Notes under the pieces: model-generated | Told to the model about the DNA's origin: nothing | Database searches by the model: none | Seen by the model: only the letters and a program-made list of their open reading frames with translations | Position numbers and translations under genes: made by a program | Virus record (IMG/VR): IMGVR_UViG_3300044723_003553 | Span: 1-51,939 of that record | Length of the DNA: 51,939 nucleotides | DNA from: a virus | Taxonomy: Duplodnaviria > Caudoviricetes | Direction: 5' to 3' (one strand) | Part shown: one piece after another, positions 1,737 to 46,695 of the stretch | Layout of the letters: every line of letters begins with the position of its first letter | Numbering within the stretch: position 1 is the first letter of the stretch

Positions 1737-2595
1737 TAGTTTTATAACTCTATCGATATATAACAAACACGATATACTCAATCTTCTAGATACGATCAGT
1801 ACATTTGATGATCAAAATTTAAAGCGTTTTATACCCAATAAAAAGAAACTTATCGCTAACCTATTTTATGAGCCTAGTACAAGAACTAGTTCAAGTTTCT
1901 ATGCAGCGGCCACATATTTAGGTCACGAAGTACTAAGCATTAATAATGTACAGTATTCCAGCGTAGCAAAGGGTGAAACTCTAGAAGATACTATTCGCAC
2001 ACTTGCAAGTTTTGTGCACTGTATAGTGTTAAGGCATCCGGAAGAAGGTGCCGCCAAACGTGCTGCCCAAGTTAGCACAGTCCCTGTAATAAATGCAGGT
2101 GACGGTGTGGGCGAACACCCCACACAAACACTATTAGACCTATACACTATCTATAAACATTATGGTAGACTAGATGGACTAATAGTAACACTAATGGGAG
2201 ATCACAAATATGGTCGTACCATTCACAGTCTGGTCCAAGCACTAGACTTATTTGATACTAAAATTAATTTAATAGGGCCAATAGATTTAAAGTTACCCAA
2301 GAAATTTTACAAAGAACGCTATCTTGAAAGTGTAGAACTTACTGCTAATATTGCTATGTCAACAGATGTTCTATACATGACTAGAGTACAACGGGAAAGG
2401 GGTGCACGGGGAAATTATGCCTTTACAAGACTGGATGCAGAAAACTTGCCACCAAACAGTATTGTAATGCACCCCTTGCCTCGTGTTGATGAACTACCCA
2501 ATTGGTTTGACACAGACCCTAGAGCCAAATATTTTGAACAAATGTCAAACGGACTAGCAGTAAGAAAATTTTTATTAGATAAGATATTAGGTTGA
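1720..2595 (+). CDS. pyrB: aspartate carbamoyltransferase catalytic subunit
   Basis: FYEPSTRT, NAGDG, HPTQTLLD, RVQRER and MHPLP motifs. Confidence 0.95.
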   Translation: MLSKGSSFITLSIYNKHDILNLLDTISTFDDQNLKRFIPNKKKLIANLFYEPSTRTSSSFYAAATYLGHEVLSINNVQYSSVAKGETLEDTIRTLASFVHCIVLRHPEEGAAKRAAQVSTVPVINAGDGVGEHPTQTLLDLYTIYKHYGRLDGLIVTLMGDHKYGRTIHSLVQALDLFDTKINLIGPIDLKLPKKFYKERYLESVELTANIAMSTDVLYMTRVQRERGARGNYAFTRLDAENLPPNSIVMHPLPRVDELPNWFDTDPRAKYFEQMSNGLAVRKFLLDKILG

Positions 2596-2619
2596 CTCTT
2601 ACTGTACATAGTATATAAT
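2592..2619 (+). promoter_or_regulatory. sigma70-like promoter
   Basis: TTGACT-N16-TATAAT upstream of 2647. Confidence 0.65.
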
Positions 2620-2646
2620 ATACATATTGTTGAAAACGAGGACACA

Positions 2647-2841
2647 ATGTATCAAGGCAACGGACACATTTTTGAAGAAAAGTTTAATAAAGTCAGTGAT
2701 TTTATGGATCGCTGGTACGTAGACCCTAAAGAACGTGGGTCACGTAAATCTAGCGAATATCGCGGTGCACTACGCAATCAAGCACGTATTTCATATCGTG
2801 TAGCTAAGAGAGCACTTAAGGACATTCAGAAGGCAGGTTAG
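2647..2841 (+). CDS. hypothetical basic protein
   Basis: GAGGA RBS, 64 aa, follows promoter. Confidence 0.65.
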   Translation: MYQGNGHIFEEKFNKVSDFMDRWYVDPKERGSRKSSEYRGALRNQARISYRVAKRALKDIQKAG

Positions 2842-2936
2842 ATTCACCGCGGAGTAGGATAGCACTAGGCTATCGGGTAGTGAGCGTTAGGCGGGGGCTA
2901 CACTATAATATCTTTCACCTCTAAGAGGAGTATCTG

Positions 2937-3200
2937 TTGATTGTTGTGGCACTTTATCCAGACGGTATAACAATGAGTCAACTATATCTTCCTTTTGCAG
3001 GAACTCCTGGGTATTCAGTAAGCGATACTCAGTATAATAAAGCAATGGACCATTATACTGATGTACAGTCCTGGTGCGACGCACACTTAGTTGGGCCCTG
3101 GAGTTGTAATCCTGGTGATATATTACACGTTGGTGTGCGTGTAAGAATTGGCAGTTTAGATGATCTTGCATATTTTTGTCTAAAATGGAGTTATATATAA
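2937..3200 (+). CDS. hypothetical protein
   Basis: GAGGAG upstream; 87-aa ORF, start uncertain. Confidence 0.5.
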   Translation: MIVVALYPDGITMSQLYLPFAGTPGYSVSDTQYNKAMDHYTDVQSWCDAHLVGPWSCNPGDILHVGVRVRIGSLDDLAYFCLKWSYI

Positions 3201-3586
3201 TGACTATGCATTTATTGGGACCAGAGTTTACTACTACGAGTACTCGCAAACGTAAGTCTAAAAACAAAACTAAATCACTTCTTGCTGCTGAAGCAGAGCA
3301 TGAAAAATATCTACGTAAAATGGGTGTGCACCCAGATCAACGTAAACAAAATAGGGCCCGTAGTTCAGTCCGGTTAGAACGGACCGCTCATAACGGTCAT
3401 GTCGGGGGTTCAAATCCCTCCGGGCCCACCAGTACAATTATGTATAATTCTTCTATGGCAAAGAAACAACAGAAGATTTATACTGGAACTGAGATTATCG
3501 GTATTGCGCAGATGCATAAATCTAATGCAGTTCCTGTTAGAGGTAAAAAACAAGCCGAAGAAATTGCAAAGATGAGGCGAGGATGA
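3200..3586 (+). CDS. basic phage hypothetical protein containing a nested tRNA gene
   Basis: GGAG RBS then ATG at 3200; N-term MHLLGP..TTSTRKRK and C-term YTGTEIIGIAQMHKSNAVP...EIAKMRRG; frame stays open through tRNA 3354..3431. Confidence 0.75.
   Translation: MTMHLLGPEFTTTSTRKRKSKNKTKSLLAAEAEHEKYLRKMGVHPDQRKQNRARSSVRLERTAHNGHVGGSNPSGPTSTIMYNSSMAKKQQKIYTGTEIIGIAQMHKSNAVPVRGKKQAEEIAKMRRG
3354..3431 (+). tRNA. tRNA with CAT anticodon, most likely tRNA-Ile2 (lysidine type)
   Basis: Acceptor GGGCCCG/CGGGCCC+A+CCA; D stem GTTC/GAAC; anticodon arm GACCG-CTCATAA-CGGTC; T arm GGGGG-TTCAAAT-CCCTC; lacks initiator features (no C1:A72 mismatch, no three G-C pairs in anticodon stem). Confidence 0.9.
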
Positions 3587-4743
3587 TGCCTGACATCTTT
3601 AACCATTATCCTATGTTTATTGATCAGGAAACAGGATATAAGAGTAATTTTTTAATTGATTTTGCAAAATTGAAGAGGAGACCTACCGATGAATACATTC
3701 GTAAAGTACTCACAAATCAATTTGATCATGATCTATATAACTTACTTTTTAGCCAATTTGACCCTAGTCAGATTCAATTTTTAGAAGGAGTTGTTTGTGA
3801 TTACACAACTCCTAAAATTAATACTATTGAAAATTATAATTTATCCGATTTAAAATCTGATATGTTGGATATTTTAACCAAAAAATTAAAACCGTTATCT
3901 AATCAAAAAGCTATCTTATTTCTCTCATGCGGCGTAGATAGTCTTCTATTACTACACATTTGTTTAGAATTAAACATAAAATTAAAGTGCATATATGTGG
4001 CATCGTTGTATAATAAAGATGAGATTGAAGACATATGCAGGATAAGAGACCAGTACAACATCGATGTAGAAATTATTGACAACTACGACCCATTGGTGCC
4101 GGACCAAGATTATTATCGTTACTTTCATTTAAATCCATCTTTCCAAAACGTAGGCGCCATTGGCCCGGTTCGGTACTATAATATTTTAAAAGACCCAATG
4201 TACTCGGAATACAAATATGTATTAACAGGACATGAAGTCGAAGTAACTTTAGATATGATACCTTTGGCCATATATAACTCCGCTAGTGATCAAACCCAGT
4301 TCAAAAACTATAATAAAATATATGGAAAATATGTGAACTATAATTTTAATCAACTGACAAAGCAAAGTATAGAAAACTTATTTAATTACTCCAGGTACGA
4401 GCGTGTGATTAAGAGATTAACAATGTGTAGGGACTATGCTGTGAATGAATTGTTAACAGGCAAACATTATGTTAAGCCATACAAGAACGAAAAATTAGTG
4501 TCTGCTGCTCTTTCGTTATCTAACGAAGACGTAATCGCTAACGCCTATAAAATTCCCAGCTATGAAATACTAGACGATGTATGGAATTTTAAGACTCCGC
4601 CTAAAAAATTGTTTGGAAATGCAAATAAGTATGAAAAAACTTTTAATATGCTTGAAGACTCCATGGACGATCCCAGGAGCAATGTCCTACAAACAAACAA
4701 GGTCTGGTTAAAAAATTATATGATCCAATATAATAAGTATTAA
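3583..4743 (+). CDS. asparagine-synthetase-like N-type ATP pyrophosphatase domain protein
   Basis: LSCGVDS PP-loop variant (SGGxDS) and downstream VLTG. Confidence 0.6.
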   Translation: MMPDIFNHYPMFIDQETGYKSNFLIDFAKLKRRPTDEYIRKVLTNQFDHDLYNLLFSQFDPSQIQFLEGVVCDYTTPKINTIENYNLSDLKSDMLDILTKKLKPLSNQKAILFLSCGVDSLLLLHICLELNIKLKCIYVASLYNKDEIEDICRIRDQYNIDVEIIDNYDPLVPDQDYYRYFHLNPSFQNVGAIGPVRYYNILKDPMYSEYKYVLTGHEVEVTLDMIPLAIYNSASDQTQFKNYNKIYGKYVNYNFNQLTKQSIENLFNYSRYERVIKRLTMCRDYAVNELLTGKHYVKPYKNEKLVSAALSLSNEDVIANAYKIPSYEILDDVWNFKTPPKKLFGNANKYEKTFNMLEDSMDDPRSNVLQTNKVWLKNYMIQYNKY

Positions 4744-11126: not shown

Positions 11127-12161
11127 ATGAGAATAGGCTTTGCATGCAAATACTGGCATCCTGATCGCAGTTTGAGTAAACGACTGCTTGAGGAAATCGA
11201 ACGCCCCTACAATGAACGCTCTACGACTATTACCTGGTTAAACAGACAGACCAGAGATGTTGCAGAGGAAAAATTGTGGGACATTATGGTCCATAATATC
11301 AAAGGTATGGAAAAACTTATTAAATATGTAGGAGGATTGCCTGATGACTTACGAATGGTTAGAATTGGCTCCAATATTTTGCCTGCTTATACTGAGTCAG
11401 ATTGGTGTTATTATTGGAAGAAACCGGATGTCAGAGAGTACTGCGAACGAGAGTTTGCTAAAGTGGGTGCAGTTGCAAGGAGTCTTGATGTACGCCTGTC
11501 TTTTCATCCTGGTCAGTTTACTGTTCTCGCATCTGATAATCCAGACATTGCTGGCCGTAGTATAGAGGAGTTTGAATATCATGCAGATATGCTCAGGTGG
11601 ATGGGTTATGGAAAGACCTTCCAGGATTTCAAGTGTAACGTCCACATCGCAGGCAAGAGAGGTCCAGCCGGTATCAAAGACGCACTTAAAAAACTCTCGC
11701 CTGAAGCAAGAAACTCCATTACAATTGAAAACGACGAAAACAAGTGGGGTATCGATAGTAGTCTAGAACTGGCCAAAGATTGTGCACTAGTACTAGACAT
11801 ACACCATCACTGGTGTAGAGAAGGTGAATACATAGAAAGAGACGACGATCGTGTTAAAAGAGTTATTGATAGTTGGCGGGGTGTTAGGCCTGTTTGCCAC
11901 TATAGTGTATCTAGGTGGGATTATCTCCCAACACATAAACAAGGAGAACGGCCGGCCATGGACACTCTACTTTCCGAAGGATACAAAAAAGGAAAACTAA
12001 GAGCACATTCTGACACTTACTGGAATACAGCAGTAAACGAATGGGCATGGACTTTTACCAAGGACTTTGACATAATGTGTGAGAGCAAACACAAGCAACT
12101 GGCTAGTATTGGATTTTACAACAGCATGACAGGATCTGATGTGAGTGTTTATCATGGCTGA
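11127..12161 (+). CDS. uvsE: UV damage endonuclease
   Basis: RIGFAC, HPGQFTVL, IENDE, LDIHHH, RAHSD, IMCESK motifs. Confidence 0.92.
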   Translation: MRIGFACKYWHPDRSLSKRLLEEIERPYNERSTTITWLNRQTRDVAEEKLWDIMVHNIKGMEKLIKYVGGLPDDLRMVRIGSNILPAYTESDWCYYWKKPDVREYCEREFAKVGAVARSLDVRLSFHPGQFTVLASDNPDIAGRSIEEFEYHADMLRWMGYGKTFQDFKCNVHIAGKRGPAGIKDALKKLSPEARNSITIENDENKWGIDSSLELAKDCALVLDIHHHWCREGEYIERDDDRVKRVIDSWRGVRPVCHYSVSRWDYLPTHKQGERPAMDTLLSEGYKKGKLRAHSDTYWNTAVNEWAWTFTKDFDIMCESKHKQLASIGFYNSMTGSDVSVYHG

Positions 12162-12697: not shown

Positions 12698-13642
12698 ATG
12701 ATTAAACAAAGTATTATTGCAGGTGCCATCATGGCTCTTGCTAGCACCGCGGCATTGGCTGAAGACAAGAAGTCTGATCCTGTAAACACTTGGGACGTCA
12801 AGGCATTTGGTGAAGTCCGTGCATATGGAGAAGTATCCAGTAAGGACAACGTAGATGCTGAAATTAAGTCAGATTCCACAAAGTTTGGTTTCAAGGTCAA
12901 TGGTCAGGCTGGCGCAGTTGGCGTATTTGGCGAACTAAGTGCAAACGTTGACGTTAACGGAGCATCAGACAATGTAACCACACGTTTTGGTTATGTTGGC
13001 GTGTCACTTCCAAAGATTGGTAACATCAGCCTAGGCAAGCAGATAAGTATTCAGGAAGGATTTGTTGACAAGGCAGACAAATTCTATAGTGCTGGCAACA
13101 ACAGTGTCCAGAAGATGTCATTTTATCAGCGTAATAGCATCAAGTACACGAATACTATTGGCGGAGTTGATGTTGGTGCTCTAGCAGCTATGGCTGACGG
13201 CGATGCTGGTAACGACAACGTTGATCGTTGGCAGATTGGTGCTGGATTCATGGGTCTTGGCGTTGCAGTAGGCAAGGACGCAAATGCAGACGAAAACTAC
13301 TATGGCGTAGGCTATAGCAACAAGTTTGGTAAGATTGGCATGGGCGCAAGCTACACAATTAAAGATGCAGGTGCAGACACAAGTCTCTCAGACGCACTAG
13401 TATGGGGCGATGACAGTACTGGCGTTACACGTGGTATTGAGCTAGCAGTTAGCTATGATATGTCAAAGAAGATGACACTTACTGGCGGTTATAATATGAC
13501 AGATGCAGACGCAGATGACGGTAATGCTATTGGCGAAGTTGCTTATAAAATCAGCAGCAATGCTGTTGCATTTGGCAACGTAGAGTATGATATTGATTCC
13601 GGTGACCACACATCACGAGTTGGTATTTCAATCACATTCTAA
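12698..13642 (+). CDS. Gram-negative outer-membrane porin
   Basis: Signal peptide (ALA-E), alternating beta strands, R.GYVG...G.ISLGKQ, C-terminal Phe. Confidence 0.85.
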   Translation: MIKQSIIAGAIMALASTAALAEDKKSDPVNTWDVKAFGEVRAYGEVSSKDNVDAEIKSDSTKFGFKVNGQAGAVGVFGELSANVDVNGASDNVTTRFGYVGVSLPKIGNISLGKQISIQEGFVDKADKFYSAGNNSVQKMSFYQRNSIKYTNTIGGVDVGALAAMADGDAGNDNVDRWQIGAGFMGLGVAVGKDANADENYYGVGYSNKFGKIGMGASYTIKDAGADTSLSDALVWGDDSTGVTRGIELAVSYDMSKKMTLTGGYNMTDADADDGNAIGEVAYKISSNAVAFGNVEYDIDSGDHTSRVGISITF

Positions 13643-22147: not shown

Positions 22148-22243
22148 GGTCCTGTAGTTTAACGGTAAAACACCCGCCTTATACGCGGTTAGATGTCTCC
22201 AGATTAGAGAGCGATCCCGGTTCGAATCCGGGCAGGACTACCA
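22148..22243 (+). tRNA. tRNA-Ile(TAT) with non-canonical long variable arm
   Basis: GGTCCTG/CAGGACT+A+CCA; CCGC-CTTATAC-GCGG; 26-nt variable region; CCCGG-TTCGAAT-CCGGG; 96 nt. Confidence 0.85.
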
Positions 22244-45261: not shown

Positions 45262-46695
45262 ATGCCTGAAATCTATGCTCTCGTAGCAGGAACATTATAC
45301 GGACTACTAATAGGTATCATCCCAAGTGCTGGTGCTACTACTGGTCTTGTGGCATTGTTTGGATTTATTAGTTATTTCGTTGATCAGCCTTACTTGGGTG
45401 TTATATTCTGTATGGCTGTTGTAGCCGCATCAACAACAGGTGATACTTACACAGGAGTATTACTTGGTATACCAGGCGCTAACAGTGCCGCCGCTACAAT
45501 GGTAGATGGGTTTCCCCTGGCGCAAAAAGGCCAAGCAACCTACGCCATAACAGCAGCAGTGACAACAAGTACTATAAATGGTTTATTATGGGGGACGCTT
45601 ACCTTTGCACTATTACCTTGGTATACAAACCTGTTAATGATCTTGGGTATACCAGAACTTTGGGCGTTTACCATGCTTGCACTTGCCACTGTTGGTTTTG
45701 TGTCGAGTACTTGGTGGATGCGTAGTTTAATTGCTATTGTAGTAGGAATTGGTTTAGGCATTATTGGAACTGATCCTGCAACAAATGCTGATCGTTATAC
45801 CCTGGGCTGGGATTACTTGGGTGCAGGTATACAACTCATGCCGTTTGTTGCGGGATTGTTTGCAATACCAGAACTAGTCGATGGCTTAAAGCGCAGACTT
45901 GCAACCACAAACAGTACAGATCAACTTGGGCAAACTGTAGCAGGCGTACGGGCAGTATGGGCTAACAAATGGGATGCACTGCGCGGTGGCTTTATAGGTG
46001 CGTTCATTGGATTACTGCCTGGTCTAGGTGGAGCAATGGCAGACTGGATGGCATATGGATCAACTGTTGCTGCCCACCCAAATGAAAAGTTTGGTGACGG
46101 AAACATCAAAGGTGTTATTGGACCAGAGGGTGCGAACAATGCACAGAAGGCAACGTCAATGATTCCTACTGTGTTGTTTGGTATTCCCGGCGCACCATTT
46201 GCAGCGGTGATCATGGCATTGTTCATGTACTTGGGATTTGAACTGGGTACACCAGACTTAGCACATGACGAGCGTTTCTTTGACAGTTTAACATTTGGAT
46301 TTATGTGGGCAACGGTGCTAGTGGGTGTGTTTTGTTTGGTATTTACACGTTACATCAGTGCTATTACCCGTGTACCATACAAATACTATTTTCCACTGTT
46401 GCTAGTGTTTATTACTTGGGCATGTGTGCAGTACACCGGTGGATGGGAAGATTACTTTATTTTTGCAGTATGTAGTGTTCTAGGCATACTGTGTAAGAAA
46501 TATAAATTTAGTAGACCAGGGATGGTTATTGGATTTATACTAGCAGAGCGTGTAGAGGCTCTAACACTACAAATGACCAGTTTGTATTCAATTGATCAAC
46601 TGGTCACGCGACCAATATTTGTTATACTTGTACTAATAACCACAGGTGTGTTTGCATGGGGTATAACCACAAAAAGGAGATTAAATTATGCGTAA
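45262..46695 (+). CDS. tctA: tripartite tricarboxylate transporter large permease
   Basis: GIIP, IPG...AATMVDGFPLA.KG, GLFAIPE, GLLPGLG, EGANNA, GIPG; many TM helices. Confidence 0.92.
   Translation: MPEIYALVAGTLYGLLIGIIPSAGATTGLVALFGFISYFVDQPYLGVIFCMAVVAASTTGDTYTGVLLGIPGANSAAATMVDGFPLAQKGQATYAITAAVTTSTINGLLWGTLTFALLPWYTNLLMILGIPELWAFTMLALATVGFVSSTWWMRSLIAIVVGIGLGIIGTDPATNADRYTLGWDYLGAGIQLMPFVAGLFAIPELVDGLKRRLATTNSTDQLGQTVAGVRAVWANKWDALRGGFIGAFIGLLPGLGGAMADWMAYGSTVAAHPNEKFGDGNIKGVIGPEGANNAQKATSMIPTVLFGIPGAPFAAVIMALFMYLGFELGTPDLAHDERFFDSLTFGFMWATVLVGVFCLVFTRYISAITRVPYKYYFPLLLVFITWACVQYTGGWEDYFIFAVCSVLGILCKKYKFSRPGMVIGFILAERVEALTLQMTSLYSIDQLVTRPIFVILVLITTGVFAWGITTKRRLNYA

Follow-up and report, generated by a model that had tools for sequence, protein, structure and literature searches.

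A complete tRNA gene lies within an intact protein-coding gene of a T4-like phage, and in related marine phage genes the same internal slot carries exchangeable tRNA genes, alone or in arrays. At the level of sequence, comparison establishes that the tRNA is nested in a frame that stays open, that both the protein flanks and the tRNA structure are under selection, and that the cargo is exchanged. The reading favored here, to which a probability of about two in three is assigned, is a dual-coding tRNA-carrier gene in passive dual use, whose transcript would be translated when whole and cut by RNase P for tRNA.

The nested tRNA and its gene

The window (the whole analyzed stretch of 51,939 nucleotides from the IMG/VR record IMGVR_UViG_3300044723_003553) is a piece of a T4-like phage, as gp9/10 and clamp-loader domains were found in a domain search, and marine runs contain its sequence. 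The original prediction described a canonical, CCA-ending cloverleaf inside an intact ORF with its own ribosome-binding site, and both elements were confirmed (Table 1). ARAGORN called a tRNA with anticodon CAT on the + strand at 3354-3431, which scored 68 bits against Rfam RF00005 (gathering score 29); it is 78 nt long and its 3' end is the encoded CCA. The ORF is stop-free over 128 aa and includes RARSSVRLERTAHNGHVGGSNPSGPT, and only one of the three frames across the tRNA is open, namely that of this ORF. GGAG at 3187-3190 is located 9 nt 5' of the ATG at 3200, which is overlapped by the TAA of the upstream ORF. Among the other nine tRNAs of the window, none lies in an ORF with more than nine codons on both sides. 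No tmRNA was called in the window by ARAGORN or Rfam; here a tRNA is found inside an ORF, not a tag ORF inside a tRNA-like domain. An assembly chimera was ruled out: in three marine runs, contigs with 3-9 differences reach from one flank through the tRNA to the other, and many independent contigs, as well as the genome of the isolate Melnitz, show the arrangement too.

Table 1. Features of the carrier gene and its upstream region in the window (dN/dS from close pairs)
Feature	Position	Strand	Remarks
Top-scoring sigma-70-like promoter upstream	2592..2619	+	11/12 match; likely transcript start
GGAG Shine-Dalgarno-like site and TAATG stop-start overlap with ORF 2937-3200	3187..3202	+	
Protein gene	3200..3586	+	128 aa, basic, pI 10.8; phrog_27048, tail type C1
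N block, conserved (MHL...RKRK...H.K.L.KMG)	3200..3325	+	helix predicted, residues 25-40; dN/dS 0.08-0.22
tRNA gene, complete	3354..3431	+	anticodon CAU, encoded CCA, Ile2-type acceptor stem; codons 52-78
C block, conserved (Y..SMAKK...YTG.EIIGIAQMHKSNAVP...MRRG)	3443..3586	+	hairpin and helix predicted; dN/dS 0.13-0.33

Several other features of the window were recorded. A UAU-anticodon tRNA is located at 22148-22243, and nested copies of it occur in six loci (L204, L205, L207, L233, L332, and L386); these UAU tRNAs measure 92-96 nt and have an extended variable arm that contains a common CAGATTA stretch. Together with the nested CAU tRNA, it gives the window two predicted AUA readers. The GC-richer gap at 2835-2945 contains two small hairpins, with no folding signal over shuffles (z 0.66) and no Rfam match. 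A 386-aa ORF at 3583-4743 has weak PAPS-reductase/QueC-like matches and is probably missing in some strains, since the contigs of three runs skip it (joint 3582-4733, side 26 letters). Host-like genes are present at 1720-2595, 11127-12161, 12698-13642, and 45262-46695; the domain search of such genes gave UvdE, porin, and TctA, and one gene, with a phrog_37670 match, is presumably aspartate carbamoyltransferase-like, judging from its motifs.

The protein family and its exchangeable cargo

Both ends of the protein had been assigned to one family, and the profile comparison agrees: residues 3-127 match positions 3-127 of phrog_27048 (E 3.6e-13) with both ends in one ORF, and tRNA-free members match the same profile. 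A protein search yielded 847 homologues, and among the best 120 of them many linkers are recognizable translations of tRNAs. Because protein searches are biased toward open frames, DNA was gathered by patterns for one flank only, in four scans (at least 119-120 rows each, of an estimated 150-240), with two protein-guided scans in addition. The tally held 905 records including control loci, 686 of them with a C-block anchor; once records lacking the start motif had been removed and duplicates collapsed, 299 unique segments were left. Among the matches listed, ARAGORN found tRNAs in the same linker of 191 of the 299 segments, a proportion that is not the frequency in the family because the search patterns favor carrier clades. 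The frame is open in 189 of these 191 carriers and in all 108 tRNA-free segments, again among the matches listed. Both closed copies look like errors when compared with other sequences: L005 lacks one base of an N-block A run relative to L002, and L234 is a hybrid in which two tRNAs meet at their common T loop. These two error-like copies aside, neither stops or frameshifts in relatives nor a division of the two ends between families were found. The homologues also agree with the original prediction that the tRNA occupies a variable linker; the tRNA system is larger than was seen there, and its exchangeable cargo had been missed.

At least nine anticodons were found in the slot (Arg-UCU, Pro-UGG, Trp-CCA, Ala-UGC, Thr-UGU, CAU, Ile-UAU, Leu-UAA, and Asp-GUC), the majority of which read A-ending codons that are heavily used in the window. 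At least 23 combinations of cargo and tail type were counted, and among 290 complete genes 140 have one tRNA, 35 two, and four three (both counts among the matches listed). Genes whose flanks are 95-99% identical bear different tRNA sets, and the sets are mixed on a weakly resolved tree (quick method, 83 columns, 67 of 128 branches open). The Trp, CAU, and Ile-UAU tRNAs are each read in two phases, and nesting persists in both tail types and in several reading phases. Cargo decays in some copies, and the decayed Pro tRNA of L102 still keeps the frame. A tenth anticodon, Pro-CGG, is present in L633, where the Arg-UCU, Ile-UAU-like, and Pro-CGG tRNAs of an array (444-762) share a single open frame and the N block is divergent. 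In other loci tRNAs are found just outside family genes (L440 5367-5442; L459 4700-4776; L849; L238), lying 6 nt downstream of the stop codon, about 11 nt upstream of the start codon, or a few hundred nt off, and these are a possible source of cargo.

Two C-terminal tail types share the N block and can be aligned up to IG.A, beyond which they diverge. The second tail (AYNKG type), which is unalignable, was found on the same N block in L320, L323, L345, L369, L372, L703, and others, with the swap point at the IG.A junction. The tRNA-free members include those of HTVC008M, Cr30, and PhiW-14; another (L447 4935-5366), possibly part of a prophage, comes from a 551-kb scaffold of Rhodospirillales bacterium URHD0017. 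The 26 matches from genome collections are mostly MAG contigs of scattered taxa. A bS21-like gene, whose representative matches PF01165, is found directly 3' of the stop in 27 unique carrier loci (e.g., L317 and L363); in the window the next gene is another, not bS21-like. Searches of Pfam, PDB sequences, and PDB structures by Foldseek gave no match for the protein, BFVD contained only uncharacterized homologues, and the top Atlas score of 0.81 pointed to no function. Two structure models reached pTM 0.27 and 0.32; tRNA-coded residues 57-64 of the window protein have pLDDT below 50, and both models fall below 50 over all or part of the stretch, so that the linker is likely disordered according to these models.

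Selection on the reading frame and on the tRNAs

In close pairs, dN/dS of both conserved blocks is far below 1 (Table 1), and the N block shows synonymous switching, with third positions free to vary. The frame is also reflected in the spacers, where the difference is a multiple of three for 26 of 27 additional lengths (64 lengths at 37 junction types; 9 of 169 rows skipped) and only the spacer length of L234 loses the phase. Viral Arg-UCU tRNAs taken irrespective of context served as a control. All frames are closed in 94 of 114 such free tRNAs of 77 nt and in 40 of 94 of 78 nt, compared with none of the 19 family Arg-UCU tRNAs (Fisher p 1.2e-4), and a long open frame surrounds 5 of 208 free ones; since the sequences are related, pair counts and p values overstate independence. 

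Within the tRNA stretch, dN/dS of close pairs is 0.58-2.23 and synonymous change is suppressed (dS of the Arg tRNA 0.022 vs. 0.38-0.45 in the flanks), which implies a peptide that is unconstrained except for stops. The stems are paired at 97.5-100%, where shuffling gives means of 76-93%; both sides have changed in 7-14 of 21 pairs (Trp, 10 of 17), and the five CAU tRNAs are 100% paired with two-sided change in 7 of 21 pairs; these pairing and covariation counts are inflated by kinship and by selection through ARAGORN. The CCA end is encoded in 127 of 128 distinct family tRNAs. Both codes, protein and tRNA, are by these comparative measures under selection, which is in line with the dual use proposed from the single sequence.

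The view that the CAU tRNA resembles Ile2 also held. It has G3-C70, C4-G69, C5-G68, G1-C72, and U11-A24, in agreement with the Ile2 features set out in the available part of PMC1635315 (G3/A3 with C70/U70, C4-G69, C5-G68, no C1-A72, and no A11-U24). The acceptor determinants are invariant or covarying in all five CAU tRNAs, and the closest E. coli matches of the window tRNA are annotated as tRNA-Ile. The nested CAU tRNA has the features of Ile2, the class predicted to be a substrate of TilS. Two other ideas found little ground. A longer D loop as a special adaptation was unsupported, as 94 of 113 sampled 78-nt viral Arg-UCU tRNAs lie outside the family. A scheme in which the tRNA is excised and the mRNA rejoined is disfavored: it would keep the frame for the 78 nt of the window tRNA and lose it for others (Pro, 77 nt; Ala and Thr, 76; Trp, 74), and stops are avoided inside the tRNAs.

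Expression, alternative readings and known systems

RNase P cleaves the 5' end of tRNAs, and a 3' nuclease trims behind the CCA. In the passive dual-use model, the gene would be strongly and early transcribed, ribosomes would read straight through the whole tRNA genes of an intact transcript to yield a small basic protein, and host RNase P together with a 3' nuclease would cut the transcript to give mature tRNA. The cut would leave a stop-less 5' fragment, so that the tRNA from each molecule would cost further protein, and established RNase P chemistry predicts that protein and tRNA are exclusive per molecule. Since a molecule can serve translation before it is cut, such exclusivity need not mean regulation; the split would most likely depend on how ribosomes and folding compete, with no codon-specific control. 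The linker would accept any stop-free peptide, and the conserved flanks may act as recombination arms for cassette exchange. This model sits less easily with the two closed carriers (L005 and L234) and with the simpler placement of tRNAs just outside the gene in L440 and L459, the advantage of nesting being outside its account.

In 39 of 94 carriers and 2 of 22 tRNA-free genes, a consensus promoter ends 5-8 nt upstream of the ATG, and a Shine-Dalgarno site is present in 31 and 13 of them, respectively; no carrier has both. The near-identical sigma-70 box (e.g., in L009, L011, L083, and L127) has a -10 element that predicts a leaderless mRNA. This leaderless-type consensus suggests strong transcription by the host polymerase, and early, strong expression of the carrier gene is inferred from it as the sole basis; the window copy, which has the Shine-Dalgarno site instead of the leaderless promoter, counts against this part of the model.

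It is very improbable that the tRNAs come from a separate, shorter transcript that would remove the competition between mRNA and pre-tRNA. A sigma-70 match of at least 10/12 occurs in only 1 of 133 N blocks, and with no conserved internal sigma-70 promoter the tRNA is likely derived from the mRNA itself; the third positions of the N block, moreover, vary freely, and TATAAATA, which we take to be a promoter motif, was not found near the gene. The scan covered sigma-70-like promoters, which leaves room for phage-specific ones. Cloverleafs that stay unreleased and act in the mRNA as stabilizers or as decoys for host anticodon nucleases are likewise a very unlikely explanation, considering the encoded CCA, the conserved Ile2 acceptor determinants, and the bias of the anticodons toward heavily used A-ending codons. 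One contig from an RNA run that spans the cut site (3226-3442) would suit this idea and fits uncut RNA or DNA; the RNA runs are contigs with broad, flat cover, silent on level, strand, and ends, and gaps in this cover carry no weight; DNA carry-over is possible. Hardly credible, and largely refuted, is the proposal that only the tRNA is real, the ORF being a shadow, a remnant, or an artefact of assembly: it could draw on the two closed copies, and it is opposed by the low dN/dS of the flanks, the avoidance of stops in nested tRNAs, the tRNA-free homologues in cultured phages, the independent assemblies, and the carrier gene in an isolate genome.

A regulated switch is a more substantial alternative, albeit an unlikely one. 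Here ribosome traffic would hide the cloverleaf, and faltering translation would allow folding and cutting, giving more tRNA and less protein; the triggers would be loss of host tRNAs or shut-off, making the gene a general sensor of translation capacity. The minimum-energy fold of the entire mRNA contains the cloverleaf, although the centroid fold lacks its D stem, and nesting is kept across tail types and phases although placement beside the gene is possible. The bS21-like neighbor in 27 carriers and a like logic proposed for selC in selB (PMC8124441) are also in favor. As a switch tuned to the nested tRNA, which is how the original prediction may be read, the idea found no support, because cognate codons are depleted upstream (AGA, 7 of 329 Arg codons in N blocks vs. 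155 of 505 in downstream ORFs; CCA, 14 of 135 vs. 103 of 214), the window gene contains no AUA, and the slot accepts nine or more different tRNAs or stays empty. This rarity or absence of cargo-read codons counts against codon-specific sensing, and exchangeable, sometimes absent or decayed cargo speaks against a switch as well. A leader-peptide attenuator was rejected on the same codon evidence and because no + strand terminator was found in the window at 2500-4000. A broader and equally tentative version regards the gene as a device widespread among phages, its early mRNA serving as a translation-gated tRNA reservoir with swappable cargo: ribosomes would hold the cloverleafs unfolded, and stalled host translation would let RNase P free the tRNAs and silence the protein. 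If so, recombination in the flanks would let a phage population re-tune its cargo to new hosts or defenses.

For the passive carrier gene, several known systems offer comparison. The tRNA clusters of T4 and T5 have small ORFs between the tRNAs, and tRNA-mRNA co-transcripts such as tufB are known. There, tRNA and protein come from one RNase P-cut precursor, as proposed for the phage gene, but the tRNAs lie between coding sequences and cutting spares the ORFs. A closer likeness is tRNA-Sec (selC), predicted inside the selB ORF of Alphaproteobacteria (Mukai 2021, PMC8124441), where a whole tRNA is also nested on the same strand and in frame, the prediction comes from bioinformatics alone, the same hypothesis of alternative outputs and nonstop mRNA was put forward, and remnant copies occur too. 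That case, however, is bacterial and concerns a single, unvarying tRNA that lies in an extension at the C terminus of the elongation factor serving it, whereas the phage gene has an internal slot between conserved blocks, at least nine anticodons, arrays of up to three, and tRNA lengths that are often not multiples of three, with spacers restoring the frame; selB is the partner of its nested tRNA, and the phage protein has no known link to its tRNAs. In the Armadillidium vulgare mitochondrion, tRNA-Lys is found wholly inside the cox1 coding region in direct orientation, as in the phage gene, although this is a compact animal mitochondrion with one fixed tRNA and no cassette exchange reported (cited in PMC8124441, in the part available). 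A tRNA inside an ORF is thus already a known, still unproven kind of arrangement. A phage gene with an exchangeable multi-tRNA slot was not found in the literature searched, in which subscription papers are thinly covered, nor in the available parts of PMC7029224, PMC7162821, and bioRxiv 10.64898/2026.09.22.753630 (main text of the last); new here are the phage gene, the internal slot, and the exchangeable multi-tRNA cargo.

The same system was identified in a cultured phage. CDS 124 (68376-68819; protein QZI94853.1) of the Methylophilales phage Melnitz (MZ577097.1) is a family member with an in-frame tRNA-Trp and tail type C2, and four Melnitz isolates encode an identical CDS 124 protein. This tRNA is gene 125 (68570-68643) in the available part of the supplement of PMC9004378; the available text and supplement of that source carry no remark on the overlap. 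The GenBank record contains CDS 124 and has no tRNA feature in that stretch, an example of how annotation rules that delete overlapping ORFs or tRNAs can erase real genes.

These findings extend a single predicted bacterial case of a tRNA within a coding sequence to a recurrent, modular system of marine phages and provide population-level evidence for selection on both codes. Melnitz on H5P1 is a cultured pair that allows a translated mRNA as an RNase P precursor, and the control of its split, to be tested.
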